IMG/VR virus record: IMGVR_UViG_3300027763_000039
Span: 32,001-96,000 of that record
DNA length: 64,000 bases
Source of the DNA: a virus
Strand: one strand, 5' to 3'
Below, in pieces: positions 19,227 through 48,264 of the stretch. The notes under the pieces were generated by a model. It was not told where the DNA came from, did no database searches, and saw nothing but the letters and a program-made list of their open reading frames with translations. Within the stretch, counting starts at the first letter, position 1, and the number at the start of each line of letters is the position of its first letter. The position numbers and the translations under genes were made by a program.

Positions 19227-19236
19227 TTTTTATTTC

Positions 19237-24807: not shown

Positions 24808-24834
24808 AATTTTATCCTTATTTTAATCTTCCTA

Positions 24835-26481: not shown

Positions 26482-26502
26482 AAATTATCCTTAAATTTAT
26501 TC

Positions 26503-30843: not shown

Positions 30844-33800
30844 TTATACTTGGAGTACTCCTTCTGTTTTCATTGCTAGTTTGTTCATGGCTCCGTTAAC
30901 TTGATCTAGGATCATTCTCTGAATAGGTTCTTGCATATTAGCAAATACTGATGCTCCATTAATAACAACTTCTACTCTGTGTGTACCTTGTAGATTAACT
31001 TGTTCTGGTATTTTAATCTGTTCAAGTTGACCAATAAATCTATTGAAAGTGCTGGTAAACTGGCTTAATCCGTCTAATTGACCTCTGCTATTATTATTTA
31101 CACCACCACCGACTGGAGTTGCCCCCATGCTTTGAATCATGTTTTCTAAAGCCATACCAAATTGGGTTAATACTTGATTACTTCCAGTTAATAAAGTTCC
31201 AAATATCGCTAATTGTTTATCAACATCTCCAGCATGTTGAGGATCAAAAGCTGCTTGAGCAGCCATATTTACTCTTTGGCTCATTTGGGGATTCATCTGT
31301 TGATTACCCTGAGTAAACATTGCCTGATTTTGTTGTTGGTTCTGTTGGTTTGTCTGATTCCCTTGAGGAGGAGCTTGTTGAATCTGTCTTGGTATTCCTC
31401 TATATTTATATTCTTCAGCTTTATTTATTTGTGCTTCTTTTACTCTCTCGCCCAATGCTTTTCTTTCAGCTTCTATACTATCTCTAGTCTGTTTTCTCTC
31501 TGCTTCTATTGCTGCTAGTCTTAGTTGATCTAATTGTCTTCTTTCATCTCTGTCTTGTGTATATTTTCGTTTTTTAGGAGTTTCTCCACCTGACTCTAAG
31601 TATACTACTCCACCACTAGAAAATCCTTGGGCTCCACTATTAATACTCTTTAACAGAGGTAGATTTTGCTGAGTGGCCTGACGATTAACAACAAACTCTC
31701 CTGGGGTCAACATTGCTGGTACAGTGTCTGTGCCTCTTGGCTGATAAGGAATCAACATTCCATTATTAGCATAAACCACCCCACCTCTAGCCTTAGCTAA
31801 TACATCAATATTACTAGGAGCTAAATTGTCTGAACCAATATATTTAATAGCTGATCCAGGTGGCATAGTTTCAAAAAATCCTTCTCTAAATTTTTGAAGC
31901 ATCTCTGGATTTCTTTTTCCTATAAACTTCATAATTTGGGATAGAACTTCACCATCTCTTGTTACTGCATCTGTACTATCATATATTGCTCGTCTGCTTG
32001 GTAGTCTAGTCTGCTGTTGCATTAGCCAACTATCTGCAAGACCTCCCCCTCCACTATTTGGACTAGCAAATGTTTGTGTTTGAATACCTCTTAAGGTTTT
32101 ACCAGATGGATCTTGTAATTCTAGTTTCTTTAATAACGGGGAATATTTCATATCAGATAATACTGATTGTACTTGGTCAAAATTATCATGTAACCAACGA
32201 GCCACATAAGATTTATTTAGCTCATAATCAAGATCAAATCTTGATGGGTCTAATGTTTCATCAAATTTAACAATCATGGGTTTACCACGAGTATCTGCTC
32301 CTGTAAGTGTTCCTTGCATAATAGATCTGGCGTGTTTTTCAGCTGCTTCCCTACTAGTGTAGGTGTACAAGCCTTGACCTTGTCCGTACCCCTTTGCAAT
32401 ACTACTTTTACCACCTTCTTTTTGAAAACTTTTTAAAATAGAGTCTTCTAAGCCAGTATTACTAGCATGAAAAAGAGGTACAGTTTTAGAAGCTTTGGGC
32501 ACATCTAATGGCGCACTAGATTTAGTAATAGGAGTTTTTGCTCCTCTGATACTTTGTCTTGAACCAGCGTTGGTTGTTGTAGCACCTCCAGCCACAGCTG
32601 CTTCAGCAATATCAGTAAACATATTCCAAGCTGCACCAGCTCTTTCTAAAAAAGAAGCTCCTAATAATCCTGGTCCTGCTGGTGGACCATAAGCACTAAT
32701 TTCTCCTGTTGGAGTATGCCACTGTCTCCCACTATTATCTGTAGTTATTTTTGCTCGTTGTGTTTGTAATTTTGCCTGTTGATTAGCAAAGTCTAATTCT
32801 CCTTGGGTTGGAGTCATTTCTGGCATATAGTTCTGATTTTGTTGACCTAGTCTTGGATCCATTAATCGTGATCCTGGAACCAACACACCATTTTGAGCAT
32901 AAACTATGCCACCCTGAGATTTAAATTGACCAAATGCTTTTGCTTTAGAGGATGGTATTGGTGTGACAGGTGTTGGGCTTACGGGCTTAACTAAATCGCC
33001 ATAGCCTTGTTGCTCAATTTCATATGAGGTTGTTGGTCTTCTAATATAGTCTTCACCAACACCAGACTCAACTCTAGTAGTATCTGTTATAAGACTTGGT
33101 TTCTTAGTATAACCATTTTCTCCAGCACTAATATCAGGATGTTTTTCTAATTTTTTCCATAATTTTTTAGCATCTGGAGTTTGACTATCGTCAGGTATTA
33201 CAGAACCACCTATTTTAGTGATATACTCTATAATAGCATGATATAAACTTTCTCCATATCCTTTTTTGGCTAATGATGTTTCTATTTTAAATGTTTTTTG
33301 ATTATCTATCGGTTTTGCAGAAACTCTTCCCCATCCTTGGTTAGCGGATCCAGTTTTTGGATCTTCATAAAAAGCAATTATCTCTCTTGCATCTTCTCCA
33401 AATACTTCTGAATTAAACTTGTCTGCATTTGTATTATCGTATGGACTTAGAATGCGAATTTTATTACTTGCTGGAGCTCCAGGAACATCTGGAGTTTGTG
33501 GTTTATTTTGTTGAGCAAGGAGAGACTGTTGGAGCTTGATCATAACTTTTTGTTTAGCATCTTCTAATACTCCACGAGCTGTTTCTATTAAGAATCCACC
33601 TCTAGATTGTGCTAGTTTTGGATCAGTATCTGCTTGAGTTAAATTAAAATTAGTATGTCTAGACAAAAATTCAGCAGCAGCAGACTCGCTTTCAGGTTGA
33701 TAGAAATTACCAGTTCCTTCGACTTTAGCACCATATGTGCCTCCAACTTTTTGTTCAGCAGTACCAATTAAACCTCTATCTTTGTATCGGGAGGCATTCA

Positions 33801-36800
33801 TTTCATCTACTGGTCCAAGATTAACACGTTCAAATTTACCCATTTCTGAACGAAAATTACTTAATAGTACTTCTTTTAATGCTGTTTGTATATTTTCTCT
33901 ACCAATAGTATCTCTAACCCCCATACGACCAACAGGCTGTTGCGCAACACCAGGGGCTTTTGCTCCTATTCCGGTAATGCCAATCTCTTGATCTCCAAAC
34001 AATAAATTAGTACGATTAAATGTTTTTGGTAATTCACCAGATGTTCCAGTTAGTTGATATAATGTTTCAACTAAACTATCAAAAACTGGTTGAGGATATT
34101 GAATAAGTCTCTGTATCGAATCAATATCAAAATCTTTTGTTTCAATAAATTTAGAAAAAGTTGGTTTAGCTTGAGGTTTTATAAAAGAGCTTGCACCTGT
34201 TATTTTATTAGTATCAACTGTTCTGTTGGAAGCAAAGTCATATTCTGATGAATTCTTAGCCGAAGTATATGCTGCATCTAATGTTTGTTGATGACTTCGT
34301 ACTCTGTAGCTAGCAATTTCATCTGCTCTTTCTTCTAAGCTTCTATAGACAGGTAAACCCTGCTGGTTTCTTGATTTAGTATCTGGTCTAAGAGTACCCT
34401 CTTTTTCTTGTTTTTGATATTCTGCAAGTTGTTCTTTGGCCCATTGAGTTTTTAGTTTCTCTAATCTTTTGAATTCAATATCTCTAGCATCTTTTAGAGA
34501 TTTTTGATATTCTGCCAATGTTCGACTTTGAGACATAGTTTTACTTGGATCAAATACTTGCGCCGTAGCTTGTGTGTCAGTTGAGGTAAGACCAGTTCCT
34601 TTTACTCCTCCAGCTTTTGGATTAGCAGCGCCGCGAGTGCCCAAATCTTCAAAACCCAAAGGAGCTCTTTCTGGTCGTGGGGCTGGTAATACTACTGGTT
34701 GTTTAAGCAGAGGGGTTTTTGCTCTTGGTACTCTTGTTTGTGGTGATGGTTTAGGTCCTGCTCCGGGTAAACCAAAAAGAAAACTTCCTACAATATCACT
34801 AAACATATTCATTCTCTCATGGAATGGAGCACCCAATGGCCCTGGTCCTGGTGGTGGTCCATAAGCACTTATAACACCTTCTGGAGCATTCCAATCAAAT
34901 CCTTCAGCATCTCTATTTGCTACATGAGCTTGTTGTTGTCTACGTGCCCAATCTAATTCTCCTTGAGTTGGAGTCATTTCCGGCATATCACTCTGATTTT
35001 GTTGGCCCAATCTTGGATCCATTATTCTTGGAACTAGCGTACCTTCATGAGCATAAATTATCCCACCCTTAGAATATGTGGTAGCATTCGCATCTTCTGG
35101 ATCAAAATCTTTAATCATCTTTTCAAGTCTATCACCCTTGACTCCCGGATAATTTTCTTTCATCCAAGTTCTAAAATTAACTGCTGGTGAACCACCAACA
35201 GCATCGGAATAATTACCATATTCATTCCAATACTGCCGGGAATTTCTCAACTGAGAGGATTCCTCAGGGTTACCCCAATTTTTTAAAATACTTGCTATTC
35301 TGGCTTCCTGTCTTGCTTTCTCTATTTGTTCTGGTGTTAGTTTAGCTTTATTACTCTGTTTGTCTTTTCTTTTGATACCTGCCACTTGTTTTCTTCTTAA
35401 CTTCTCATTTTCATAGTCTGCTTTTCTTTGTGCTCTTATATCTTCTAAACTAGGTTTATTTATTTGTCTACCATCTTGAGCATAAACAACTCCACCATTA
35501 GAATAAAGTTCAGCCATTCTCATGGCCATCATAGTTTCATATTTATCCTTAAACATAGTATAAAAATCTAAATCTTCTGTTGCAAATCCAGAATCTTCTG
35601 ATCTATTTAATGAATTACGATTAGCTAAGAAATAGTGATATGCCTGTTCAACAGTTTTATATGGCACTGGTTTATTTGCAGACACTAGTGCTTGTTGATG
35701 TCTTTTCATTATTTGTCTAACCGCTCCAAGCCTAGCATCAATTTCAAATGGCCTAGTTAAATATTCTGCTCTAGACATGCTTATAGGATTGTTTGGATAC
35801 TTTGCATTATAAACTTGAACAGCCCAATCTAGATCTTCGTTTGTCATAAAAGTTTCAGATCGTTGCGATTCATCAGTACTTCCAAAAGCAGCATGTCTCA
35901 TCTCGTGCATTAATAGTCCGTATGAGCCCTTTTTAGGATCAACATGAATTACTTCTTGTCCTTCTTTTCCCATTAAAGATCCACTAAATCTGGTGTCAAA
36001 AGGAGGCTGATAGTGAGTGCGTATTTTAGTATCTAATTTATGTCTTTCAACATAAGGAAAAGCTCTTCGATATTGTAAATGATCTAATTTCCCTAATGGT
36101 TGACTTTTAAGTTCTTCATCGTTGCTTATGGCAGCATTATATCCTTCTGCAACTGCTTTGTCTAATTCTGCTTTTGATCCGTAAGCTGGTGTTCTAGGAC
36201 TAAATTTTGCTGGTAGTCCTTTGCCAAGAGCAACGTCTTCAAAAGATAAGTCTTGGGAAGGTATATGCTTGCCTTTTTCAGCATAAATTACACCTCCTTT
36301 GTCTTTATTAATAGCTTGTAATAATGGTAAATTTTGACTAGTTGCCTTAGCATTAACAACAAACTCACCAGGAGTTAGCATTGCTGGTACAGTATCCGTG
36401 CCTTTGGGCTGATAATTTATTAATTTACCAGCTGATGCATATACTATACCACCCTTACTAAATTGAGCACCTGCGCCACCCGGATTAACCGGAAGATTAC
36501 CTGCACCGGGAGGAGCACCGGGAAGAGGAGGACCATTTTGAGCACCAGCAGGAGGAGCAGGGGGTATCATAGGTGGAGCAGCTGCTAGAAGCAGCAATCT
36601 ATCTAATTTAGCATCCATTCTGTTAGATAATGCAAAATGAGCAGTGGATAGTTCATAATGGGTTGAGTCTCTATCCATCATGTATCCTAGACTATCAGAA
36701 GTCTGTGATAAATTTGTTTTATTCTGTTTCTTCAAATCATCAGTGTTTTTGAGTAATCTTTGCTCGGTAACATCTACCTTATCAAATCTAGTTAAATTAT

Positions 36801-39800
36801 TTCTATTGATAGTATCGGTATTATTAACTAGTTTGGGTAGTTGTTGATCTTTGGTATTTTTAGTAGTATCAGAAATCTTTGTTGATAGTCCTAGATTATT
36901 TTTAGCATTATTAGCAATTTCTTGTTGTAGTCTTGAGTTTAATTCTTTATCACGAATTTGTGATGACTGTTGTGTAGAGTCTAATGTTTTAGTTTCTCCC
37001 CCAACTGATCTATAAATTACTCCACCCTTGCTCTTATTAATAGCTTGTAATAAAGGAAGATGTTGACTGGTGGCTTTAGCATTAACAACAAATTCGCCCG
37101 GAGTTAACATTGCGGGAACGGTATCAGTTCCTCGTGGTTGATAATCTACTAATGTTCCATCTGCCGCATAAATCATTCCACCATTACTACTTCCTTGAGC
37201 TACTCTGAACGCAGGATTACCAGCAGCAACTCTAGGATATAGTAATCCAACAGTATTGTTAATATTGAAAGCTGATAATCTAGCAGCATTAGCAGCATCA
37301 GTATCTTCTGGATTAATATAACCCATTTTCGTTAATTGTTTGCTAATATTATTCTTTAGCATGGCCTGTTGACCAGGATTCATGCCTTGACCTCTTGCTG
37401 CCATTCTATCAATGCTACTAAAGTTTCTTAATAACTTAGCAAAAGTTTTTCCTTGAGCTTTCTCTAGTCTTTTTCTCTCAGCCATAGTAGCCACATCCGC
37501 ACCATAATCACCAGACTTATTATAGATACGAAATGCTACTTGCTCAATTTGATCTTGACTCATTCTTAATATGGCAATATCTCTATCACTATATTTATAG
37601 TTACCACCAACCGTTTGCTGACTCATTGTTTGAATAAGTGCTTCAGCTTGTTCTGGTGTGAATGGACGGAAAAGATCTTTAGCAGCATCTGCTGATAAGC
37701 CGTACTTTGTTAAGAGTTTTTCGTCTAGTCTGGGACTTCCACTTAGATTAAACTTTCCTCTAAGTTTAGATAAGGCTTGTTCTCTCCAGCCCATAAAAGC
37801 TTCTGGACTACGGAATTTATCTGGAGCACCCATACCAACAGCTTTACCTACCGCTAATTCCAAGTTAAATCGTCTAGAATTAGCTCTATTAGATGCTAAA
37901 ATTTGTGCTCTATTAGCTTCTCTTTCTTGTTTTTTCTCATAGTTTTTCCATAGTCTATCTTGTTCAGCTAGTGGGATATCAACAAAAGCTTTATTATTTA
38001 ATGATACAATTTGTCTATTTTTATCTTCAAGTTGTTGTAATAGCTTTTCTTTATCTCTCTTCTGTTCCTTGCTCATATCCTTAGGGTCTTTATACTTATA
38101 TCTATCTATTTCTGCTTCTATTTCTTGTTTTTCTTTATTTAATTTATCTGTCTGTTTATAAACATCAACTGTGTCTCCATCAAAAGCGACCTTTGCAGCC
38201 CCTGGTGGTAATGCTGGACGATCAACCCATCGATCAGCCTGACTTTCATTTGCTGCTCGTCTTCTGTTAATATTTTCCTGATTATTTCTATTAATAGTTT
38301 GAAAACCTGATACAGCAGCATTTGCAACTGATGATACATAAGGAACTGCTGTCTGTACTGCTCTATTAGCTGTAGCTCTAACTTGTGTTGCTCTAGTTTG
38401 TCTTCTTTCTTCTTGTCTTTGTCTTTCAACCTTTTTAGCTTTTTCTGCTCTTTTTTGCTCTGCGGCTAGTTCTGATTTTCTTTCTTGCTCATCTAAATAT
38501 TGTACATGAGCTTCTGTGGCGGCATCTAGGCGAGCACTACTAGCTCCTGTTCCTCTATTTTTATCTTGTTTAGTGTCCCAAAATATGCCAGGAACAGTAT
38601 CCATTGTATTAAAAGAATCATCAATAAGTCTTATTTGTTCATCATAAAAATTTTGGTTTGAACTAGTGCCCTGAGAATTTCCTCGGGCTGCTTGATCTTT
38701 TTTCTTTAATCTTAATAGTTCTGCTTTTCTTTCTACAGCGCTTCTTTGAAATGCATTTAAGTCAAAACCACCAAGATGATCATTGGGTCTTCTGGGTCTT
38801 CTGCTAGCTTGTAAGTTTCTATTTGTTCTTATTTCACTGGTAGTTGCATCATTAGCATCTGCTAAATAACCAGCTGTTTCTTGAATATTCATAGCTAATG
38901 CAGCTGTAATTGGAGCGAATTGTGCTGGGACACCCATAGTAGCGTGTTCAACTGAAGTTAATCCTAATTGACTGAAATTACCCAATTGTCTATCTAACAT
39001 AGTTCCTTGTTCAACACCCGTAGCCCATCCTATCATAGAATGAGCTCCAACATCACCCATGGTCTCTCCCGTGCCTGTTAACATTCCTAGTCCAGTATTA
39101 ACTAATCTATTTCTATTTGTGAGTCTAGGATCAGCCATTGCTCCACTAACAGCGCCAAAAATTGATCCAAAAAATCGACCAGCAATAGGAGCGGCAGCTC
39201 TGGCAATACCTGGAGCTTGACTAGCTCCATAACTCAAAGCTGCTCCGGGATTTCTAATAACAGATCTAGCTCCTTGATAAGCACTGCCTAACATATTTCC
39301 AGTTCTATTTAGTAATGAAGCTGGTGGTTTTGGTTTTACCGGTTGTATTCCTAACCATCTTTCTAAACCATTTGGATTTACATTTCTGGGTCTTCTTATC
39401 TCTGGGATATCGTTATCACCTAAGTCTAGTCCTGCTAATTTGACTTCAGTTATTTGTTGTATGTAGGGTTTAAAAATTGGATCATTAATACCTAATCTAG
39501 AAGCTCGCACAGCTGCATTCCATTCTCTCCTTACCCTAGCTCCAGTCATAGCTGGATCACCCTGTCTAGCTAATAAAAATTTAAATAAAGGATCACGAGG
39601 ACTAAGATTACTAGGTACTCTATATCTATTTCCTCTTGCTATGATATTTAATGCATCACCAGCATCATCACTGCCAGATATCATATTAGCAACTAGCGGA
39701 TCTATTACATTTGCTATCTGCACAGGGTTGGTTGATCCACCAGCTAAATAAACCACCCCACCCTTAGCATATTTACCAGAATTAATACTCTTTAAAAGAG

Positions 39801-42800
39801 GCAAATTATTTTGTGTAGCTGATCTATTAACTACAAATTCACCAGGAGTTAACATGGCAGGAACAGTGTCAGTTCCTCTTGGCTCATAATTAACTAAAGT
39901 TCCACTAGCAGCATAAACTGGACCACCTTGTGCTCTAGTCATAACATTGCCCGGTCTGGCTAATCCTAATCCTTCATTACGACCTTGAGCATTATTAAAA
40001 GCATTGGTCAAATTAGTTAAAGCTGTTATTAAAGCTGTATTAGCAGTATTGAGTATTTGAGCTTGTTTTTCTAATAGTGGGTTAATAGCCTTTTGAGTAG
40101 CTTCGCCCAAAGCTGCCTGTTGTTGTTTATATAGATTCTCTAGTGCTTTAATTTGTGGATCTTCTTTTGGGGCAGCTCTCAGGTTGGCAACAATTTCTCT
40201 TAAGAAAGGATTATTTTGAACATTAAGACCTTGGTTTCTGGCTGTGTTCTCAATCAAATCAGCTCTTAGATTTCCGGCTCTTTGAGGATCAGTATTATCT
40301 AATCCAGAAACAGTAATAAGCTCATTAAATAAACCAAAAGTATTCTTGGCATCACTAGCAAAAGCTTCTTGAGCAGCACCGACCGCATCCATGTGGGTGC
40401 CGCCATCCTCAATAACTTTTTGGTAAGCTTGTTGAGCAGAGATGGACTGGTTGATGGTGGTGATTTGACCGTTTAATGTTCTATTAAGAAGATCATAGGT
40501 GGAATTGAGATTTTTTAATTCTGTGGGGGTGCTTGTTACTAATTTTTCTCCAAAAGAAGCTCCGGCCTGAGTTTTACTTTCTTTCTCTGATCTTAGCTGA
40601 CTAATTTTACTAAGAGTGTCTTGCATATCTTGTTTGATAAGATCTGGTAGGGTTTCTAAACCTTTTTCAGTAGCGGCGATTTGTCTATTTAGATTAGCAA
40701 GAGCTTCTTTTTGCTTGTTGATAAGAGATATAACAGCAGGATCTGCTGCATTACCTGAATTTTCTAGTTTACTAATATTACCTTGAACAGCAGCCTGCTG
40801 ACCCATCAACATTGTTCTTTGGTTGGTCAAATTAGCTGCTGTTAAAGAGCCGGGTTTAATACCAGCGTTTATTGCTGCTTCAGTATATCTGCCTGATGCT
40901 CTTTCTTTAAGAGAAATTCTTCGTCCTTCTCCTAGAGCTTCTTTGAGTGATACAGTACTGTCTGAGAGATATCCTTGTAAACTAGCAAATTTACCAATAG
41001 CTTGAGTTTGAAGTTCAGCTGCTTTTTGTACAGCTTCTCCATATTGATTTAATCCTTTTTCTATAAATTCATACTGACCCAACATTGTATTGAAGGATTT
41101 TTTCTGAGAGTCAATTAATTGTTTTAGTCCACCAGTGCTCTCTATTAAGGACTGAGGATCTAATACTCCGTCATTCTGTTTGATATTATCTTTAACAGCG
41201 CCTTTTAATTGTTCACGAATAGCATCAGAGATTCTATTATCTCCAAAAGTATCTATAAGTTGTTGAGTTAATTCTCTGGTAATATCATCTCCTAAAGTTT
41301 CACTACTACCATTACCGCTCTGTTGTGCTTTAACAGCAATTTTTGTAATAGTATCTTCAGCAGAAGACCCGAACTTGGATAATCCTTCAACAAATTTCTT
41401 ATCTGTACCAAACATTCCACTAACTTGACTAATTGCTGTTTGACGTTCTTTTTGTGAATAAGCATTAGGATTCTTTAATACGTCTTTAGACTTAAATTCT
41501 GTTTTTAGCGAAGCTTGACCACTTGCTATCTCATCAATTCTTTGACTGGCTTTGTCTAATCCCATAGTGGCTGCTGCAATAGCCTGATCCATGTTTTCAA
41601 AGGTTTTAGATATACTAACTGATGCAAGATTTAAAGTTCTTGCAGATTGTTGTAGAGCTTGCACCCTGGATCTTTCTGCTACAGTAGCTTGTAGTGTTGC
41701 TGTTTCTTCTTTAAAGTAAACATCTATTAACTCTTTTTGTCTCTTTTCAACATCTGCTATAATTTGTGGATCTTGTCCTGGAGTTTTCTTAATATTCTCT
41801 AATTTTTTATTTTCCAGATTAAACTTTTCATTAGTTTGAGCAATATTTAATTTTGCTAAGTCTTTATCTCCACCAAAAGAGGATAAGGCTTCCTGAATAT
41901 TTGATCCACCCTCAACCTTAGCTGTAATTGTCTTAAGAGCTATCTCTCCAGCAACTTTTTGGTTAGCAGTTTCTTCTTCAGCAATTTGCTTATCTGTTGG
42001 TTTCGCAGCTTTATACATACCGAAAGAAGCAGCTTCTAAACCACGAGTTAAATAACTGGGCTGTCGTAATTCTGCTTGTTTTGCTGATATTTTTTCTTCT
42101 TCAGCAGCAATGCTTTTAAAATTTTGAATAATTGATGATGTAATAGCGGCATCTTTTGGATTTTTATTAAGTTTTTCTAATTGAGCTTCCGCATTTGTAG
42201 CACTACCTTCTATTTTCTTTTTACTAACATCTATATCAGCTTCTGCCACTGCTTTGCCAAAGCTATCTACAGCTAATACCGCACCAGCTACTGCTCCAGC
42301 AAGTGCTCCCCAAGGACCAAATTGTGCCCCAACAGATACGGCCCCACCAAATGCTGTGCCAGCAGCAGCAACTCCTCTACCATTGCTTCCACCAACCATT
42401 GAGCCTACCGCTTCTGCTGCCATAGGAGCAGCAAATGCTAGAGCTAAACCACCATTCATATATCTAGCTCTTCTATCTCTTTTAGCTTCATATTGTGCTC
42501 TTTGAGAGTCAGACATGTTACCAATTTCTTCATCTGATGGTCCCATTATTCGACTTCTAATTGAACCCAATCCTCTAGATGCTCCTTGAAACGCTTTGGA
42601 AAGTGTAGGAAAGCTTTGTGCTAATCTGCTCTGAGATTGAGTATTTGTTTGAACAGCTTTATACAAACCTCCCCACGCATCTGCCACCTTTCTTTCTGCG
42701 GCGGCCTTGGCCATAGAAACACTAACGCTACTATCTGTTGCTCTAATTTGTCTAGTAAGAGATGCTACTTGTTTACGTTGAGCATCTGCTACGGCCTTGG

Positions 42801-45800
42801 CGGCATTTTGATCTCCTAAATCAGCTGCTTGTCTAGTACCAAGACTCACTCCTCCGACTACTTGATCTTCTGCTGACCTATAAGCTGTATCGAAATCGAC
42901 AGAAGGATTGGCTGTTGCTATCTGATTTACAATTTTAGCTAATAGATCATCTACTGCTTTTTCAGCCTGTGCTGATACCGCATCAAAACTCGCTACTGCT
43001 TCATATGTTGTGCCACCCCCAGCAAATCGTTGTATTCCACGAACAGCACCACCAGAACGATAGCCTAAAGCTTTAGTTGCAGCTTCACGAAGAATAAAGC
43101 TACCTACTGGTAAGTTTATCGGCCCTATACTATCACTAGTTCCTGTACCCGAACCTTTAAAAACACTAATTCCCCCAGAAGAAAATGAACTCATTCCATT
43201 ACGATCTGCTTGATTCATTCGGTTGAGTTTACCATATCCTATTGCCTTGGCTGTTTCTGGTGGAACATAAGCCTCACCATTAGAAACCATAGCTTGAACA
43301 TGTCCACCCGATGCATAACCTCTAGCTTTAAGATAATTACCAATTTGGTCTTTTAGTTCTGCTGGGCCATTAAGGGTAAGTTTAGCATCTGTTGGAATAT
43401 TTTGAGGAAGATTAAAATATTTAGCAGCATCCTGAAGACCATCTGGGAAGTCGATACCATAATTGGTGGCGGCTTTATTTGCTATTGGACCACCAAGCTG
43501 ATGAATAATACTTTCAGCCATATATCCCTGAGCATTGGCCTCGCCCATCTTTTTACGATCAGAAGATTTAACTTTTTTATTCTTATATAGATAGGTGTTA
43601 ATACCTGCTGCTTTTGCTGCATTAATATTTCTCTCATCATCATCAATAAATGAACCAGACTTGTCCATCTCTTTAAGTTTAAGTTCGGCAATTTGTTCAG
43701 CAGTACGATCTGGACCACCAACACCTTTAATTCTATCTATTGGTATTGGGAGTCCATTTTTAGCTAACCATGTAGCAATCAAACCCATAGTTGCTTGTGG
43801 CCTAGCTGAAATCACATGTAAATTATCAAGTAGTTCTGGAGTTTTCTTAACTTGACTAACAAGAGCTTTACCTAATTTGCTAAGTGTAGCTTTTGCTAGA
43901 GCCCTCTCTACTTTTGTCTTATCAGAAAATTCACTAAATCTTGGTTTTCTAGGATCAGATAGAATTTTATCAGCACCAAAAGCTAATGTCCTATCAAAAT
44001 CAGAATATATGGGACCAACTTGTTTTAAAATATCTCTAATCATTACATTCTTGGTTAAGTTTTGACTTTCACCACTCATCGCTTGAGCCATCCTCTTGAT
44101 GTCTCTTCCAGCAGCGTTTTTATCTAGGACACCACTAGTAATTCTAACTTTAACTGGATTATTTAGTCCTGGAATATCCATTCTGGGAGTTGTAGCAAAA
44201 GCTTTGCCCTTGAATCCAGCAGCACCAAACAATAGACCCTCTGTAGTTGCTTTTTGTATATCCAGATCATTTGCTGCTTTAATTCCAGAAGTTTTCTTTG
44301 TATAAGCTGCTAAGATTTGATCTTTGATGCTTTTTTCCTGTGGACTTAATGCATTTTTTTTCTTTAATATTTTGAGTATATCACCAGCATTTGCTCCACT
44401 AGCTTGCATTGCTCCTTGTAGAGTAAGAACTTTTAATATTTCGCTAGAAGTAGCTGTTGTTCCTGCTGTTGGAGTTACCAAACCAGCATTAGCAAACTTA
44501 CGAATAAAACCTCCGGAAGCTCTATTATTTTTCCCTTGATTTTTTGCGTATAAATCTCTAATTTCATTCATTACCAAATCTTTATTAGGCATCTCATAAA
44601 CATTAATATTACCGATGTCCTTAGACTCTGGAGAAGAAAGAGTAAATGGCCTAGTTAAATTTCTAACCACTCTTGCTCTTAATAACTTATCTAAATAATC
44701 TGTTTTAGACACCATACCAGAAGGACGAAATTTTACTTCTCCTACTGATTTTCCATCTGCACTAATAAGATCTACGGGATAACTATTTCTACGAGGAATA
44801 TTTTCAATTTCTCCAGTTGGTATATATTGTTTTCCTACTCGTTCTTTTATAGTTCTAGAAAGTAATCTCTCATATGCTTCAGACCATTTGGGGCTCTCAT
44901 CTGCTGTTCCAAGCTGACTAATTCTTCGTGCTCCTTCTTTACCAGCTAAAAAGTCTTTTGGTGATTTATCACTTCCTCTTCTTCCTAAAAGATTAGAGTA
45001 GCTTTGCATTTGTGTTGGAGTAGCTTTATTTTTTCCTAATGAAAATCTCTGATTTGTTGGAGAAATAGGTAGACCTTTTCTCATGTCATTATAAATTTCT
45101 CTTGCAATACTCTTAACGTTCAATCCTAACATCCACGGCTCTATCTGTTTAATAAATCCTGAAGCACTATCTTCATTAACGTTCATATACCTAGCTATTT
45201 TAGGATTTTGAGAAATTAATGAAACAGCTTGAGGTAGTTTTTGGATAGATACTGGTCCTACTTTTCCTCCTCCAGCATGTCTATTAATACGATGAAGATT
45301 TCCTACTCCAATACTACGAACAGCACTTTTTCTAAGAACAAACTCTCCCGGCGTTAACATGGCCGGAACAGTATCTCCATCTCCAGAACCTGGAACATGA
45401 CCACCAGCAGCAAAAGCTCTGATTTGTCCACCCTGATTATTTCTGGTGGGTCTAATACCACCAATAAATCCTCTACCGAACTGACCAAGAGCAGACAAAC
45501 CTCTCATTGCAAATATAGCACCAAGAGCTGGTAATGCTCCCTTGGCAGCATCTGTTAATCGAATTAAATTACTAGTTAAATCTAAAGATAATTTAACGAA
45601 AGACTGAAATCCAGAACTTTGTCCAATGGATCTTACTAAGCCTACAAACTCATTTCTTACTTTTGCCATTTGAACAGCTAAAGATTGTTGTGCGGTGGCA
45701 GCATCAATTGCTAAAGAGTCTTGTCCACTTTGTGCAACCTTTAATGCTGCTTGAGCAGTTGCGAACTGTTGAATTAATGGAATCACCTTACCAATCTGAC

Positions 45801-46995
45801 GAAAACCACCAAGTTCTTCTACAATTCTGGAGAACTTTAAATCTCGGGGATCTAATTGAGATAGTCCTTCACTTAATCTTCTAACAGCTTCGTATGGTCC
45901 AACGAATTTACCTTGAAGGTCTGTTAGTGTTACACCATATTCTTTAAGGGCATCGATTGTGTCTCCTCTTTGAATTCTGGTAAAAATTGTTCTTAAACCA
46001 GTAGCAATAGTTTCAGCACTTTCACGAGTTGTAGCTCGAACGCTAGTAAACACAGCCATAAATTCATTTAGAGCTTGAGTACCTTCACTAACACCCTTAC
46101 TAGCTGTAGCAAACACACCACCGGTACGCTGAATAGCAGTAATAATATCACCGGCTTCAACAGCAAACTTAGCAGCTACCGCATTAACTGAACCCAATGC
46201 ACTATCTAATTCACCAGCACTAATACCAAACTGTCTCATTAATGCGATACTACCTTCTACGGTACTATTCAAGTTATCGAATGATGGAGCTAATGCACTA
46301 AGAGCTAAAGCTTTTAATGCCTTCTCTGTATCTCTAGCACTTAAACCAGCCTGAGCTAATGTGCTAGATACTTTAATTAATTCGTTAGATGACACACCAA
46401 ACTTGGTTGATAATTCAGTAATTTCGCCAACCAATCCACCAAGATTCTTTACGGAAGTATCAGTAACCTGAGATACTCTGACTAATTCTTGATTAAAAGC
46501 AATAAAGTCGGTTGTTGCAGATGTCAGGGCGTTGGATACTTTATAGATGACAGCTGTTACTGTGCTAATAGCAGCAAATCTACGAGCAGCCAATGCTGAT
46601 TGGCGACCAAATTCCATAAAAGCTGAAGTTGTATTATGAACCGCAGCAGAAGCCGCAGCGTTTTGTTGAACAACATTTCTTGTAGCAGCATTAATCTGTT
46701 GTAAGTTTGCCGGTAGATTAGCAGCACTATTATTAACTTGTTGTATAGCTGTTCCAAGATTTCTCAAAGATAAAGCTGTAGCATTTGCTGAGGCATTGGT
46801 GGCCTGTAAGGTATTAGTAAAATTTCTAAAAGTTTGATTAAGAGTAGTAATATTACGAGTTACATTAGGATCAACACGAACATTAACATCAGCATTAATA
46901 GTTCCTAGTTGTCGCCTAATATCAGCAACAACAGTCCTAATGTTAGATGGTCCTCGTAAATTTAACTCTGCTGTAAGATTAAAACCTCTAGCCAT
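30844..46995 (-). CDS. Tail tape measure protein (5383 aa) with multiple inserted enzymatic domains
   Basis: N-terminal TP901/PhageMin_Tail-type core (FNQELVRVSQVT..ELSTKFGVS..LAQAG..TRESAETIATGLRTIFTR), hydrophobic helices near 42254-42460, repeated DTVPAMLTPGEFV module; located after tail tube and chaperones; GAGGT RBS. Confidence 0.9.
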   Translation of the reverse strand: MARGFNLTAELNLRGPSNIRTVVADIRRQLGTINADVNVRVDPNVTRNITTLNQTFRNFTNTLQATNASANATALSLRNLGTAIQQVNNSAANLPANLQQINAATRNVVQQNAAASAAVHNTTSAFMEFGRQSALAARRFAAISTVTAVIYKVSNALTSATTDFIAFNQELVRVSQVTDTSVKNLGGLVGEITELSTKFGVSSNELIKVSSTLAQAGLSARDTEKALKALALSALAPSFDNLNSTVEGSIALMRQFGISAGELDSALGSVNAVAAKFAVEAGDIITAIQRTGGVFATASKGVSEGTQALNEFMAVFTSVRATTRESAETIATGLRTIFTRIQRGDTIDALKEYGVTLTDLQGKFVGPYEAVRRLSEGLSQLDPRDLKFSRIVEELGGFRQIGKVIPLIQQFATAQAALKVAQSGQDSLAIDAATAQQSLAVQMAKVRNEFVGLVRSIGQSSGFQSFVKLSLDLTSNLIRLTDAAKGALPALGAIFAMRGLSALGQFGRGFIGGIRPTRNNQGGQIRAFAAGGHVPGSGDGDTVPAMLTPGEFVLRKSAVRSIGVGNLHRINRHAGGGKVGPVSIQKLPQAVSLISQNPKIARYMNVNEDSASGFIKQIEPWMLGLNVKSIAREIYNDMRKGLPISPTNQRFSLGKNKATPTQMQSYSNLLGRRGSDKSPKDFLAGKEGARRISQLGTADESPKWSEAYERLLSRTIKERVGKQYIPTGEIENIPRRNSYPVDLISADGKSVGEVKFRPSGMVSKTDYLDKLLRARVVRNLTRPFTLSSPESKDIGNINVYEMPNKDLVMNEIRDLYAKNQGKNNRASGGFIRKFANAGLVTPTAGTTATSSEILKVLTLQGAMQASGANAGDILKILKKKNALSPQEKSIKDQILAAYTKKTSGIKAANDLDIQKATTEGLLFGAAGFKGKAFATTPRMDIPGLNNPVKVRITSGVLDKNAAGRDIKRMAQAMSGESQNLTKNVMIRDILKQVGPIYSDFDRTLAFGADKILSDPRKPRFSEFSDKTKVERALAKATLSKLGKALVSQVKKTPELLDNLHVISARPQATMGLIATWLAKNGLPIPIDRIKGVGGPDRTAEQIAELKLKEMDKSGSFIDDDERNINAAKAAGINTYLYKNKKVKSSDRKKMGEANAQGYMAESIIHQLGGPIANKAATNYGIDFPDGLQDAAKYFNLPQNIPTDAKLTLNGPAELKDQIGNYLKARGYASGGHVQAMVSNGEAYVPPETAKAIGYGKLNRMNQADRNGMSSFSSGGISVFKGSGTGTSDSIGPINLPVGSFILREAATKALGYRSGGAVRGIQRFAGGGTTYEAVASFDAVSAQAEKAVDDLLAKIVNQIATANPSVDFDTAYRSAEDQVVGGVSLGTRQAADLGDQNAAKAVADAQRKQVASLTRQIRATDSSVSVSMAKAAAERKVADAWGGLYKAVQTNTQSQSRLAQSFPTLSKAFQGASRGLGSIRSRIMGPSDEEIGNMSDSQRAQYEAKRDRRARYMNGGLALAFAAPMAAEAVGSMVGGSNGRGVAAAGTAFGGAVSVGAQFGPWGALAGAVAGAVLAVDSFGKAVAEADIDVSKKKIEGSATNAEAQLEKLNKNPKDAAITSSIIQNFKSIAAEEEKISAKQAELRQPSYLTRGLEAASFGMYKAAKPTDKQIAEEETANQKVAGEIALKTITAKVEGGSNIQEALSSFGGDKDLAKLNIAQTNEKFNLENKKLENIKKTPGQDPQIIADVEKRQKELIDVYFKEETATLQATVAERSRVQALQQSARTLNLASVSISKTFENMDQAIAAATMGLDKASQRIDEIASGQASLKTEFKSKDVLKNPNAYSQKERQTAISQVSGMFGTDKKFVEGLSKFGSSAEDTITKIAVKAQQSGNGSSETLGDDITRELTQQLIDTFGDNRISDAIREQLKGAVKDNIKQNDGVLDPQSLIESTGGLKQLIDSQKKSFNTMLGQYEFIEKGLNQYGEAVQKAAELQTQAIGKFASLQGYLSDSTVSLKEALGEGRRISLKERASGRYTEAAINAGIKPGSLTAANLTNQRTMLMGQQAAVQGNISKLENSGNAADPAVISLINKQKEALANLNRQIAATEKGLETLPDLIKQDMQDTLSKISQLRSEKESKTQAGASFGEKLVTSTPTELKNLNSTYDLLNRTLNGQITTINQSISAQQAYQKVIEDGGTHMDAVGAAQEAFASDAKNTFGLFNELITVSGLDNTDPQRAGNLRADLIENTARNQGLNVQNNPFLREIVANLRAAPKEDPQIKALENLYKQQQAALGEATQKAINPLLEKQAQILNTANTALITALTNLTNAFNNAQGRNEGLGLARPGNVMTRAQGGPVYAASGTLVNYEPRGTDTVPAMLTPGEFVVNRSATQNNLPLLKSINSGKYAKGGVVYLAGGSTNPVQIANVIDPLVANMISGSDDAGDALNIIARGNRYRVPSNLSPRDPLFKFLLARQGDPAMTGARVRREWNAAVRASRLGINDPIFKPYIQQITEVKLAGLDLGDNDIPEIRRPRNVNPNGLERWLGIQPVKPKPPASLLNRTGNMLGSAYQGARSVIRNPGAALSYGASQAPGIARAAAPIAGRFFGSIFGAVSGAMADPRLTNRNRLVNTGLGMLTGTGETMGDVGAHSMIGWATGVEQGTMLDRQLGNFSQLGLTSVEHATMGVPAQFAPITAALAMNIQETAGYLADANDATTSEIRTNRNLQASRRPRRPNDHLGGFDLNAFQRSAVERKAELLRLKKKDQAARGNSQGTSSNQNFYDEQIRLIDDSFNTMDTVPGIFWDTKQDKNRGTGASSARLDAATEAHVQYLDEQERKSELAAEQKRAEKAKKVERQRQEERRQTRATQVRATANRAVQTAVPYVSSVANAAVSGFQTINRNNQENINRRRAANESQADRWVDRPALPPGAAKVAFDGDTVDVYKQTDKLNKEKQEIEAEIDRYKYKDPKDMSKEQKRDKEKLLQQLEDKNRQIVSLNNKAFVDIPLAEQDRLWKNYEKKQEREANRAQILASNRANSRRFNLELAVGKAVGMGAPDKFRSPEAFMGWREQALSKLRGKFNLSGSPRLDEKLLTKYGLSADAAKDLFRPFTPEQAEALIQTMSQQTVGGNYKYSDRDIAILRMSQDQIEQVAFRIYNKSGDYGADVATMAERKRLEKAQGKTFAKLLRNFSSIDRMAARGQGMNPGQQAMLKNNISKQLTKMGYINPEDTDAANAARLSAFNINNTVGLLYPRVAAGNPAFRVAQGSSNGGMIYAADGTLVDYQPRGTDTVPAMLTPGEFVVNAKATSQHLPLLQAINKSKGGVIYRSVGGETKTLDSTQQSSQIRDKELNSRLQQEIANNAKNNLGLSTKISDTTKNTKDQQLPKLVNNTDTINRNNLTRFDKVDVTEQRLLKNTDDLKKQNKTNLSQTSDSLGYMMDRDSTHYELSTAHFALSNRMDAKLDRLLLLAAAPPMIPPAPPAGAQNGPPLPGAPPGAGNLPVNPGGAGAQFSKGGIVYASAGKLINYQPKGTDTVPAMLTPGEFVVNAKATSQNLPLLQAINKDKGGVIYAEKGKHIPSQDLSFEDVALGKGLPAKFSPRTPAYGSKAELDKAVAEGYNAAISNDEELKSQPLGKLDHLQYRRAFPYVERHKLDTKIRTHYQPPFDTRFSGSLMGKEGQEVIHVDPKKGSYGLLMHEMRHAAFGSTDESQRSETFMTNEDLDWAVQVYNAKYPNNPISMSRAEYLTRPFEIDARLGAVRQIMKRHQQALVSANKPVPYKTVEQAYHYFLANRNSLNRSEDSGFATEDLDFYTMFKDKYETMMAMRMAELYSNGGVVYAQDGRQINKPSLEDIRAQRKADYENEKLRRKQVAGIKRKDKQSNKAKLTPEQIEKARQEARIASILKNWGNPEESSQLRNSRQYWNEYGNYSDAVGGSPAVNFRTWMKENYPGVKGDRLEKMIKDFDPEDANATTYSKGGIIYAHEGTLVPRIMDPRLGQQNQSDMPEMTPTQGELDWARRQQQAHVANRDAEGFDWNAPEGVISAYGPPPGPGPLGAPFHERMNMFSDIVGSFLFGLPGAGPKPSPQTRVPRAKTPLLKQPVVLPAPRPERAPLGFEDLGTRGAANPKAGGVKGTGLTSTDTQATAQVFDPSKTMSQSRTLAEYQKSLKDARDIEFKRLEKLKTQWAKEQLAEYQKQEKEGTLRPDTKSRNQQGLPVYRSLEERADEIASYRVRSHQQTLDAAYTSAKNSSEYDFASNRTVDTNKITGASSFIKPQAKPTFSKFIETKDFDIDSIQRLIQYPQPVFDSLVETLYQLTGTSGELPKTFNRTNLLFGDQEIGITGIGAKAPGVAQQPVGRMGVRDTIGRENIQTALKEVLLSNFRSEMGKFERVNLGPVDEMNASRYKDRGLIGTAEQKVGGTYGAKVEGTGNFYQPESESAAAEFLSRHTNFNLTQADTDPKLAQSRGGFLIETARGVLEDAKQKVMIKLQQSLLAQQNKPQTPDVPGAPASNKIRILSPYDNTNADKFNSEVFGEDAREIIAFYEDPKTGSANQGWGRVSAKPIDNQKTFKIETSLAKKGYGESLYHAIIEYITKIGGSVIPDDSQTPDAKKLWKKLEKHPDISAGENGYTKKPSLITDTTRVESGVGEDYIRRPTTSYEIEQQGYGDLVKPVSPTPVTPIPSSKAKAFGQFKSQGGIVYAQNGVLVPGSRLMDPRLGQQNQNYMPEMTPTQGELDFANQQAKLQTQRAKITTDNSGRQWHTPTGEISAYGPPAGPGLLGASFLERAGAAWNMFTDIAEAAVAGGATTTNAGSRQSIRGAKTPITKSSAPLDVPKASKTVPLFHASNTGLEDSILKSFQKEGGKSSIAKGYGQGQGLYTYTSREAAEKHARSIMQGTLTGADTRGKPMIVKFDETLDPSRFDLDYELNKSYVARWLHDNFDQVQSVLSDMKYSPLLKKLELQDPSGKTLRGIQTQTFASPNSGGGGLADSWLMQQQTRLPSRRAIYDSTDAVTRDGEVLSQIMKFIGKRNPEMLQKFREGFFETMPPGSAIKYIGSDNLAPSNIDVLAKARGGVVYANNGMLIPYQPRGTDTVPAMLTPGEFVVNRQATQQNLPLLKSINSGAQGFSSGGVVYLESGGETPKKRKYTQDRDERRQLDQLRLAAIEAERKQTRDSIEAERKALGERVKEAQINKAEEYKYRGIPRQIQQAPPQGNQTNQQNQQQNQAMFTQGNQQMNPQMSQRVNMAAQAAFDPQHAGDVDKQLAIFGTLLTGSNQVLTQFGMALENMIQSMGATPVGGGVNNNSRGQLDGLSQFTSTFNRFIGQLEQIKIPEQVNLQGTHRVEVVINGASVFANMQEPIQRMILDQVNGAMNKLAMKTEGVLQV
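31583..31794 (-). repeat. TMP gpH-like module, copy 5
   Basis: ARGGVVYANNG..YQPRGTDTVPAMLTPGEFVVNRQATQQNLPLLKSINSG..SSGGVVY. Confidence 0.92.
31800..32485 (-). other. ADP-ribosyltransferase-like (H-Y-type) domain within the TMP
   Basis: PLFHAS (LY/FH-G/A-S/T strand), GQGQGLYTYTSREAAEKHA (GxGLYF-like strand plus helix), GKPMIVKF. Confidence 0.68.
32608..32922 (-). repeat. Duplicated ~100-aa cargo leader, copy B
   Basis: QGGIVYAQNGVLVPGSRLMDPRLGQQNQNYMPEMTPTQGELD..ISAYGPPAGPGLLGASFLER..NMFTDI. Confidence 0.88.
33130..33440 (-). other. GNAT acetyltransferase domain within the TMP
   Basis: AKKGYGESLYHAIIEY (acetyl-CoA loop) followed by VIPDDSQTPDAKKLWKKL. Confidence 0.7.
34795..35076 (-). repeat. 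Duplicated ~95-aa cargo leader, copy A
   Basis: KGGIIYAHEGTLVPRIMDPRLGQQNQSDMPEMTPTQGELD..ISAYGPPPGPGPLGAPFHERMNMFSDI. Confidence 0.88.
35510..36270 (-). other. Zincin-like metallopeptidase domain within the TMP
   Basis: LLMHEMRHA (HExxH, 35893-35907) followed by YLTRPFEIDAR (third-ligand E..AR pattern). Confidence 0.72.
36271..36462 (-). repeat. TMP gpH-like module, copy 4
   Basis: SKGGIVYASAG..YQPKGTDTVPAMLTPGEFVVNAKATSQNLPLLQAINKDKGGVIY. Confidence 0.92.
36995..37190 (-). repeat. TMP gpH-like module, copy 3
   Basis: SNGGMIYAADG..YQPRGTDTVPAMLTPGEFVVNAKATSQHLPLLQAINKSKGGVIY. Confidence 0.92.
39737..39936 (-). repeat. TMP gpH-like module, copy 2
   Basis: AQGGPVYAASG..YEPRGTDTVPAMLTPGEFVVNRSATQNNLPLLKSINSG..KGGVVY. 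Confidence 0.92.
43012..43320 (-). repeat. Two tandem degenerate copies of the TMP module
   Basis: YASGGHVQAMVSNGEAYVPPETAKAIGYGKLNRMN and FSSGG..GTSDSIGPINLPVGSFILREAATKALGYRSGG..FAGGG. Confidence 0.75.
43580..44015 (-). other. HAD-superfamily phosphatase domain within the TMP
   Basis: Motif I IYSDFDRTL, motif II VISAR, motif III K (ELKLKE), motif IV FIDDDERNINAAKAAGINTYL. Confidence 0.82.
44525..44900 (-). other. PD-(D/E)xK nuclease-like domain within the TMP
   Basis: WSEAYERLL..YPVDLISADGKSVGEVKF (E..D..ExK). Confidence 0.5.
45260..45415 (-). repeat. TMP gpH-like module, copy 1
   Basis: FAAGGHVPGSGDGDTVPAMLTPGEFVLRKSAVRSIGVGNLHRINRHAGGG. Confidence 0.9.
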
Positions 46996-47075: not shown

Positions 47076-47957
47076 TCAGACAGTTTTATCTGATGGAGTT
47101 GGTTCTGGGGCTGGTGTAGTTGTAGGAGTTGTTTCATCTTTTTTAGTTTCTTCTTTATTGCTTTCTAATACAACGGGCTTTCCTTCTTCGTCCAAAAATG
47201 GCTGTGCTTCAACTACATAGTCACCTTCTAGATCTACCCTATTGCCGAACTTATCAACAAAGTTACCCTGCTCATCAATGAAACGATTATTCTCATCGAT
47301 CAACCTACCTTCAGCATCAACCAAACGACCCTGCTTATCAACAAGCCTTAACTTTTCATCAACAAATTTATACTTCTGTAAAAACTTGTTTTCTGGTAAA
47401 GTCTTCTCAAAATTATTATCCAACCCATAAATTATATTAGCCAATTTCTGAGCACCGAGCAAAGCTACTGGGTCATCTGCTTTGTTCAAATACTCTTCCA
47501 AACTCTTAAAATAAGGCTCATTAGTATCTTTATACACCACACAAGCGGATACTAAATAATTAAACCTAGCATTATCAGCTTGACCTTCAGCACTATGATT
47601 ATCTAAAGATGTACGAACACTAATTAGGTCTCTTATTTCGGCCCTAATTTCTTTCATCTTTAAAGCAAGGTCTTTAGCATCCTTTAGACCGAACCCACCC
47701 TTAGCTAATCTCTTTTCTCCATCTAATAGTTCTTGTTGCAGATCGGAGAACTTTCTCTGCTTTTCCTTGTTCCATAAGCCCTGTTCTTCTAAGAGATCAT
47801 CCATCTTTGCTCTAACCACAGATTTACTCTTTATAGCGTCTGTAAAGGCTTGGTTATAAGTTTTCTGGGCTTCTCTTTGATCATTTAAAGAGGGTGAACG
47901 GACCACGAAATGCTTCTCTACATTATCAACAACCACACTAAAGTTATCAGTTTTCAT
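47076..47957 (-). CDS. Putative tail assembly chaperone (gpG-like)
   Basis: Directly upstream of the TMP; helical N-domain paralogous to 48269-49309; C-terminal 7-aa repeats. Confidence 0.55.
   Translation of the reverse strand: MKTDNFSVVVDNVEKHFVVRSPSLNDQREAQKTYNQAFTDAIKSKSVVRAKMDDLLEEQGLWNKEKQRKFSDLQQELLDGEKRLAKGGFGLKDAKDLALKMKEIRAEIRDLISVRTSLDNHSAEGQADNARFNYLVSACVVYKDTNEPYFKSLEEYLNKADDPVALLGAQKLANIIYGLDNNFEKTLPENKFLQKYKFVDEKLRLVDKQGRLVDAEGRLIDENNRFIDEQGNFVDKFGNRVDLEGDYVVEAQPFLDEEGKPVVLESNKEETKKDETTPTTTPAPEPTPSDKTV
47217..47363 (-). repeat. Seven tandem 7-aa (21-nt) repeats
   Basis: VDEKLRL VDKQGRL VDAEGRL IDENNRF IDEQGNF VDKFGNR VDLEGDY. Confidence 0.85.
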
Positions 47958-47958
47958 A

Positions 47959-48264
47959 TTAATTGTCCTTCCTGTCTTGATTTTTAATTACCGGGAATGA
48001 ATAGTGATATTGTGTCTTAAACAAACCACCGTGTCTATAAAAGTCTTCTTTAAGATTTCTAATTTGCGTATTACCATGATTCAAAATTTGATTGCGAGTA
48101 TAATCCCACATATCAGCAAATTCTTCTTCTTTTTGTGATAGTTCTCCTTCTTTATCATGGCCCCACAAAAAACCAAAATTGTCTTCCATGCGAGCTAATG
48201 CTCCTATCATGGTTGTTTGGATCCTCTTTTCCATATAAAATCTTAGCCTATCTGGATCATACAT
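47959..48264 (-). CDS. Hypothetical protein in the tail operon
   Basis: AAGGGA RBS, tight packing with neighbours. Confidence 0.7.
   Translation of the reverse strand: MYDPDRLRFYMEKRIQTTMIGALARMEDNFGFLWGHDKEGELSQKEEEFADMWDYTRNQILNHGNTQIRNLKEDFYRHGGLFKTQYHYSFPVIKNQDRKDN

Follow-up and report, generated by a model that had tools for sequence, protein, structure and literature searches.

A giant phage tape measure protein with repeated lambda gpH-type modules and predicted enzyme domains between them

Tape measure proteins (TMPs) exit the phage tail ahead of the DNA (PMC12617516, PMC11445458). Here, we analyze a giant TMP of 5,383 amino acids (aa), P0001, which is encoded in a 64,000-nucleotide window of viral DNA (positions 32,001 to 96,000 of IMG/VR record IMGVR_UViG_3300027763_000039; all coordinates below are those of the window), and compare it with the closest described systems. 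One of these is gp96 of the Thermus phage P23-45, a 5,002-aa TMP whose N-terminal virion RNA polymerase transcribes the first phage genes and which has also been reported to contain a metallopeptidase and transmembrane regions (PMC10770324). The likeness lies in a giant TMP with an enzyme that acts on cytoplasmic targets after injection (PMC10770324). However, gp96 carries a single, N-terminal enzyme and is uncleaved in virions, neither a repeated module nor cassette exchange has been described for it, and we found no sequence relationship between the two proteins. Embedded enzyme domains are also present in the TMPs of mycobacteriophage TM4, T5 (pb2, which is cleaved near its C-terminus), and SPbeta (YomI) (PMC1796659, PMC12617516). 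The enzymes of these TMPs attack the cell wall, whereas the predicted HAD and ADP-ribosyltransferase (ART) folds of P0001 suggest nucleotides, nucleic acids or proteins as targets; P0001 yielded no muralytic domain.

The TMP of phage lambda, gpH, is 853 aa long and contains one copy of a module that P0001 carries in five exact and about five divergent copies. In gpH, this module adjoins, on the downstream side, the Gly-rich region that presumably contains the site of cleavage into gpH* and gpHC, and the module part of gpHC is unresolved in cryo-EM (PMC12617516). Besides the homologous module, the two proteins share a last module at a fixed short distance from the C-terminus and, as TMPs, expulsion before the DNA. 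They differ in their N-terminal core, which is TP901-type in P0001 and lambda-type in gpH, and in that gpH has no known enzymatic activity, whereas P0001 has predicted enzyme folds between its modules.

Two further systems resemble P0001 in the way domains are combined or exchanged. Polyvalent proteins unite many unrelated conflict-type domains, such as ARTs, zincin peptidases, and nucleases, in one polypeptide that is delivered together with DNA (Iyer et al, 2017; PMC5512222). P0001 likewise combines several unrelated domains of this type, namely the predicted HAD and ART folds and nuclease-like and zincin-like motifs, and its ART family is nearest, by weak matches, to the ART-PolyVal domain of polyvalent proteins. 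These proteins, however, are packaged in the head or delivered by conjugation, whereas the carrier in P0001 is the TMP, with the domains separated by a gpH-type module; tape measures are unmentioned in the polyvalent-protein paper (PMC5512222). Polymorphic toxin systems, in turn, keep a conserved carrier and exchange its tips by recombining at joints that are likewise conserved (PMC3482391). They are secreted bacterial toxins with immunity genes, whereas P0001 is a virion protein whose several cassettes are internal and for which we saw no immunity gene. An enzyme-bearing giant TMP is thus a known kind of protein; what is new here is the use of repeated gpH-type modules as joints for swappable cassettes, and the literature that we searched contained no description of either repeated gpH-type modules or cassette exchange in TMPs. 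Below, we document the architecture of P0001, its homology to gpH, the two predicted enzyme folds, and the exchange of cassettes at the modules.

The tape measure protein and its repeated module

The source genome of the window is a single contig of 108,316 bp with ~34% G+C, and a protein identical to P0001 is encoded on three contigs. The gene and its general TMP features are located as follows:

30,844-46,995, minus strand: whole tape measure gene, a single open reading frame (ORF) encoding P0001 (5,383 aa)
45,616-46,545, minus strand: TP901-type TMP core, aa ~151-460 (PF10145 and TIGR01760)
42,244-42,450, minus strand: Gly/Ala-rich hydrophobic stretch, a candidate membrane-inserting part, aa 1516-1584 (Kyte-Doolittle)
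30,847-31,098, minus strand: conserved C-terminal segment, presumed tail-tip anchor, aa 5300-5383 (common to about 66-74 of 119 relatives)

PF10145 (PhageMin_Tail) matches P0001 at aa 192-384 with an E-value of 3e-24 (86.4 bits against a cutoff of 33.2), the TP901-type core model TIGR01760 reaches 79.1 bits against a cutoff of 28.8, and several PHROG TMP families match as well. The N-terminal 600 aa are common to 113-119 of the 119 relatives compared. By these sequence matches, the product of 30,844-46,995 is a TP901-type TMP of an uncultured long-tailed phage. PhageMin_Tail is the only Pfam family recognised in P0001: Pfam searches for enzyme families found none, either on the two halves of the protein (E <=1) or on ten inter-module segments (E <=10), and the TMP gene had no megablast match among 50,697 phage records. 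Much of the chain has a helix-favouring composition, and Kyte-Doolittle windows of at least 1.3 occur only at aa 1516-1584 and aa 486-504. The presumed role of aa 5300-5383 as a tail-tip anchor follows the examples of lambda, JBD30, and T5 (PMC12617516, PMC11445458).

The chain is punctuated by a module whose exact 13-residue core, DTVPAMLTPGEFV, occurs five times, starting at aa 541, 2376, 3291, 3534, and 5090. These copies and their divergent counterparts lie at the following positions:

45,196-45,483, minus strand: module 1, lambda gpH type, aa 505-600, core at aa 541 (41% identity to gpH)
42,991-43,353, minus strand: two degenerate lambda-type modules, aa 1215-1335 (by sequence; common to about 80 of 119 relatives)
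39,676-39,963, minus strand: module 2, long type, aa 2345-2440 (core and family profile)
36,961-37,218, minus strand: module 3, aa 3260-3345 (core and module alignment)
36,226-36,489, minus strand: module 4, aa 3503-3590 (core and module alignment)
34,666-35,073, minus strand: leader A, divergent module, aa 3975-4110 (57% identical to leader B)
32,485-32,919, minus strand: leader B, divergent module, aa 4693-4837 (57% identical to leader A)
31,546-31,821, minus strand: module 5, terminal copy, aa 5059-5150 (core and module alignment)

Four of the five cores are embedded in modules of ~75 aa with the order GGxxYA..G, core, LPLL..IN, and GGxxY, and these long-type modules are 54-72% identical in pairwise comparisons over their full length. 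A second, lambda-like module type comprises the copy with its core at aa 541 and the degenerate pair at aa 1226-1330, and the duplicated "leader" (aa 3975-4110 and aa 4693-4837) is a third, divergent form. A profile built from 52 long modules found no match at E <=10 among the chain sequences of solved structures. At the nucleotide level, the module copies are only 63-77% identical, and about half of their identical residues use different codons; the copies are therefore old and maintained by selection at the protein level, rather than products of recent DNA duplications.

A preliminary description of this DNA, made from the letters alone, had reported five near-identical modules, two degenerate copies at aa ~1226-1330, and 18 GG-hydrophobic-hydrophobic motifs, 11 of them of the form GG[VIMP][VI]Y. 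All of these are borne out by the sequence, the module positions given there (~527, 2354, and so on) being those of the GG that opens each module. In 2,000 shuffles of the protein, GG[VIMP][VI]Y occurred with a mean of 0.017 and a maximum of 1, compared with the 11 observed. The lambda motif cited in the same description is truly present in gpH and aligns with module 1: BLASTP of module 1 against gpH 651-853 gave 41% identity over 97 aa (E 9e-10; gpH region ~733-790). Together with the repeat copies, this alignment supports the proposal that the module found close to gpH's C-terminus has been multiplied in P0001. The lambda C-terminal model, TIGR01541, matches P0001 below its cutoff (13.9 bits against 104.75; E 0.022) and over profile positions 224-305 only. 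As this match is weak, the module is shared, yet P0001 is not a lambda-type TMP.

The family of giant tape measure proteins

A word-indexed search identified 297 giant homologs of P0001, which measure 3,000-7,900 aa and come from contigs as long as 240 kb; related stretches in IMG/VR number at least 549. Modules were counted in 120 giant TMPs listed among the 297 homologs, and conservation along P0001 was mapped with 119 relatives. At least one loose core is present in 119 of the 120 proteins and at least one strict core in 117, mostly with 2 to 8 cores each. The distance from core to core is bimodal, falling at 150-300 aa or at 900-1,200 aa, and the last core precedes the C-terminus by a median of 184 aa across the family. 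The long units, with 900-1,200 aa between cores, hold their length while their sequence diverges.

Conservation is unevenly distributed along the protein. The parts conserved across the 119 relatives are aa 1-600, 950-1330, and 1750-2430, each module, and the last 80 residues, whereas aa 600-950, 1350-1750, 2450-3200, and 3600-5000 are variable or nearly unique. The boundaries of similarity follow the modules: among high-scoring segment pairs of at least 200 aa, to which the count was limited, 83% of the similarity blocks end within 40 aa of a module, against 24% expected, but only 16% start there. In this pattern, a conserved unit runs into its own module, and novel sequence starts directly behind that module.

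In individual relatives, the exchange of cassettes can be seen directly. The sequences of P0004 (3,490 aa) and P0002 (4,635 aa) are collinear, with 86-91% identity, except that about 1,100 aa are missing from P0004. The P0004 module at aa 3304 is chimeric, starting like the third module of P0002 and continuing like the last one, with the switch inside GGxxYAS. This is the mark that an in-frame crossover from one module into another leaves. P0003, the closest relative of P0001, is 95% identical over aa 1-584 and shares no block of at least 120 aa with it after aa 3421, yet chunked BLAST shows that it still shares the last ~75 residues. At locus L001, a block comprising the ART domain and a module (90% identity) lies upstream of the block designated S8 (77%), in reversed order relative to P0001, and at locus L035 a 38%-identical ART domain directly follows the HAD domain. 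The TMP gene is split at a module in none of 78 related loci. The conservation map, the block boundaries, P0004, and the two loci agree with the earlier expectation of a conserved scaffold with variable content between the modules. On these sequence comparisons, the modules function, at a minimum, as joints at which swappable enzyme cassettes recombine in frame; because they repeat in frame, recombination between them can add, delete, and reorder cassettes without breaking the gene.

Enzyme-like domains between the modules

Six segments of P0001 had been proposed to be enzymes, each bounded by modules or GG motifs, and their positions confirm this arrangement:

44,596-44,898, minus strand: PD-(D/E)xK-like segment 1 (S1), aa ~700-800 (motif)
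43,576-44,028, minus strand: predicted HAD phosphatase domain, aa ~990-1140 (fold and motifs)
43,351-43,533, minus strand: PD-(D/E)xK-like segment 2, aa ~1155-1215 (motif)
35,497-36,270, minus strand: HExxH zincin-like segment, ending in a GGVVYA half-module, aa 3576-3833 (motif)
33,016-33,378, minus strand: small unconfirmed domain, claimed to be GNAT-like, aa ~4540-4660 (three relatives)
31,786-32,484, minus strand: predicted ADP-ribosyltransferase-fold domain, aa 4838-5070 (fold search and conserved residues)

At least two of the segments, ART and HAD, have a predicted enzyme fold, which is accompanied by conserved catalytic residues. The two PD-(D/E)xK segments and the HExxH segment stand as conserved motifs, and the GNAT assignment was confirmed by no tool.

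An alignment of 38 sequences of the ART domain shows an invariant His6, Glu88, two Asp residues, and a Lys-Tyr pair, with Tyr33 and Tyr40 present in at least 90% of the members. The AlphaFold2 (AF2) model of the domain has a pLDDT of 86. When this model was compared with 48,161 chains by VIA, which is independent of Foldseek, nearly all of the top 49 rows were ART-fold proteins (Z 7.9 to 4.4), including a Tpt1-like enzyme, PARP16, PARP13, Arr, diphtheria toxin, DarT, and Rhs ART toxins. From the model and the residue conservation, we accept an H-Y-E ADP-ribosyltransferase fold as the prediction for aa 4838-5070. Curated sequence models reach the family weakly: ART-PolyVal (PF18760) matches 6 of the 38 members (best E 0.0079), DUF3990 matches three and PARP one, and the copy in P0001 itself matches no curated model. 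The alignment profile returned non-significant rows only from the PDB, and Foldseek of the model against BFVD returned nothing convincing. The domain also has many free-standing homologs of ~240 aa on other contigs, which lack any Pfam family. In the Foldseek comparison with the PDB, the best row was chain B of 9k3a, residues 1421-1608 (E 0.017; VIA Z 4.8, 19% identity). This chain is a podovirus ejection protein from the pre-ejectosome of cyanophage A4, which may contain an ART-like domain in another virion-delivered protein.

In the HAD domain, the motifs DxDxT, (S/T)ARP, Lys, and DD follow each other in order; they are invariant in 18 sequences with 33-79% identity, and in 21 full-length giants their conservation is 90% or more. 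Most 10-residue blocks within residues 10-160 of the AF2 model have a pLDDT of 80-96, with one block at 60. Foldseek of this model against the PDB yielded 26 matches below 1e-3, nearly all of them HAD phosphatases or engineered derivatives; they include AphA (the best, E 8e-5), the T4 Pnkp phosphatase, Pnkp1, and phosphoserine phosphatase. Curated HAD models remain below their cutoffs (TIGR01509, 12.3 bits against 29.4; HAD_2, E 0.8 in one of the 18 members), and the HAD profile has no significant match among PDB sequences, the top three rows being HAD proteins with E-values of 0.3-0.55. The structural model and the motifs support the prediction that aa ~990-1140 adopt a HAD phosphatase fold with conserved catalytic residues. 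About 70 of the 119 relatives contain the domain, and a search for free-standing relatives gave one partial match only. Judged from this distribution, the HAD domain belongs to the TMP scaffold rather than to the variable cargo and is specific to this giant TMP family. The HAD region (aa 981-1228), essentially without free-standing kin, and the ART domain (aa 4838-5070), with many, therefore have different evolutionary histories.

Both PD-(D/E)xK segments are nuclease-like by motif. Segment 1 keeps a Glu, a Pro-x-Asp strand, and a Glu-x-Lys strand in six relatives with 28-39% identity, and segment 2 has a Glu, an Asp, a Lys, and a Thr that never vary among 18 sequences; its model is of low confidence (pLDDT <60). 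The HExxH segment is zincin-like by motif, and P0002 and P0052 (~31% identity) have kept both its HExxH and a Glu downstream of it. This segment has no sequence match in Pfam or the PDB and zero matches in 1.84 billion representatives; in the Atlas, it is related to unnamed viral clusters only, apart from one LPD23 lead at 0.91. As it is present in only about 3 of the 120 family members, it cannot be a general processing protease.

The segment claimed to be GNAT-like (aa ~4540-4660) is related only to P0157, P0158, and P0160. It has no Pfam or PDB match, and the acetyl-CoA motif A of GNAT enzymes fits only loosely. In P0160, an otherwise unrelated protein of 549 aa, the domain occurs twice in tandem (residues 40-148 and 234-352), which marks it as an independent, mobile domain.

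Neighbouring genes and the role of the modules

The minus-strand genes that flank the TMP gene have few weak matches of the tail-fibre type, or none, in Pfam and PHROGs. Just upstream, two ORFs of 101 and 293 aa (47,076-48,264, minus strand), overlapping by a few bases, occupy the position of a tail assembly chaperone pair. Four large ORFs directly downstream (1,442, 548, 1,856, and 2,661 aa; 11,241-30,831, minus strand) have no Pfam or PHROG match, and the same is true of an open-ended ORF that exceeds 2,095 aa (57,713-64,000, minus strand), so that giant unannotated proteins make up a large share of the structural region. The first 50 residues of a 314-aa protein (52,852-53,796, minus strand) match the N-terminal anchor of many tail fibre and spike PHROGs, and a 384-aa protein (56,543-57,697, minus strand) has matches to tail fibre families of the collagen-like type. 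A pair of adjacent glycosyltransferase-like genes (phrog_2170; 1,923-4,708, plus strand) lies beside the end of a DNA polymerase gene at 3-1,418. Neither a gpK-like nor another protease was found among the neighbouring genes with Pfam or PHROGs.

The explanation that we favour, with moderate confidence, is that P0001 is a giant enzyme-bearing TMP made of modular units, with exchangeable enzyme cassettes between gpH-type modules, and that it would be expelled ahead of the DNA. At the end of each unit would stand a copy of the module, which is found a single time, close to the C-terminus, in ordinary TMPs such as lambda gpH. The long units, which are helix-favouring and of which one contains the Gly/Ala-rich stretch, most likely act as the ruler and later as a trans-envelope conduit, because their length is conserved although their sequence drifts. 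The short cassettes, with 150-300 aa between cores, would hold folded domains, and divergent phages have retained the catalytic residues of these domains. Because TMPs exit the tail ahead of the DNA, such domains would reach the host envelope or cytoplasm as ready-made enzymes, and by this reasoning the tail probably delivers them alongside the DNA.

Several observations weigh against this explanation. The phage is uncultured, and its TMP is known here from DNA alone. At curated thresholds, Pfam and PDB sequence searches recognise zero enzyme domains in P0001; the VIA Z-scores of the ART model are middling, at most 7.9, and Foldseek of this model against the PDB gave no match below 1e-3. The region aa 3576-4775 is a near-orphan, with five relatives among 1.84 billion representatives in an exhaustive HMMER search. 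Moreover, the TMP density in the tail lumen of JBD30 is only about 2 nm wide (PMC11445458), and three to six copies of a folded 25-kDa domain have no obvious side-by-side fit in a density of that width. Because of this poor fit, the cassette domains would need to be staggered or unfolded in the virion.

Other explanations account for parts of the same evidence. The modules could be recognition or cleavage sites of a processed polyprotein, as in the conversion of gpH into gpH* and gpHC, with the chain being cut during tail maturation or after ejection into proteins that each consist of a module and the cargo behind it. The position of the lambda module just downstream of the Gly-rich region where gpH is presumably cut speaks for such processing (PMC12617516), as does a 13-residue core that has hardly changed while synonymous sites diverged heavily, pointing to a specific molecular interaction. 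That variable cargo starts directly behind the modules fits as well, and phage polyvalent proteins have been proposed to be cut into domains (PMC5512222). However, the protease and the precise cut site of lambda gpH are unknown (PMC12617516), the module has no invariant Ser, Cys, or His that would suggest self-cleavage, and the HExxH segment is found in few family members. The units are separate genes in none of the 78 loci, and P23-45 gp96 is full-length in virions (PMC10770324). We therefore regard processing at the modules as possible but unlikely.

Alternatively, the whole chain could be a long ruler that sets a tail of ~0.8 micrometres, in which the modules are structural nodes that, for example, register three to six parallel chains or contact the tube or chaperones, and the enzyme-like domains are minor additions whose activity, if any, would be at the envelope. 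The conserved lengths of the diverging long units and the helix-favouring composition over much of the chain are consistent with such a ruler, and known tails scale accordingly: the tail of JBD30 measures 180 nm for a TMP of 1,158 aa, which amounts to 0.155 nm per residue (PMC11445458), and the 5,002-aa TMP of P23-45 defines an "extraordinarily long tail" (PMC10770324). The latter case also weakens the earlier argument that a tail of ~800 nm would be too long for P0001, so that part of the chain had to be cargo. Against a ruler alone, about 1,100 aa of cassettes distinguish relatives with 86-91% identity, the order of cassettes differs between phages, and the catalytic residues of the ART and HAD domains are invariant across divergent members, which would be needless in a mere spacer; we consider this explanation improbable. 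As for an artefact, in which the gene would be misassembled or the gene call wrongly fused, its probability is negligible: P0001 is identical on three contigs, 297 giant homologs have the same layout, and the modules lie within one ORF in all 78 loci examined. We reject misassembly on the basis of the three identical copies and the one-ORF layout at the 78 loci.

The explanation of P0001 as a carrier of exchangeable cassettes has consequences beyond this phage. The module family, with up to eight copies per protein, provides natural deletion and shuffling variants for studying the maturation of gpH. More than one-third of the 16-kb TMP gene is invisible to Pfam, and the cassettes are a source of uncharacterised phage enzymes. 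TMPs are usually seen as rulers and conduits; here, a whole family would use the ruler as a carrier of exchangeable enzymes. The carried enzymes would arrive ahead of all phage gene expression, at the stage where functions in anti-defence or takeover bring the greatest benefit. A further-reaching proposal, which is tentative and which we think rather unlikely, is that the modules are both processing and docking signals and that the tail lumen forms a multi-effector cartridge, from which each module with its cassette is freed separately in the host. If this were true, recombination at the modules would reload the cartridge, and hundreds of uncultured phages would possess a tail-based effector delivery resembling that of polymorphic toxins.

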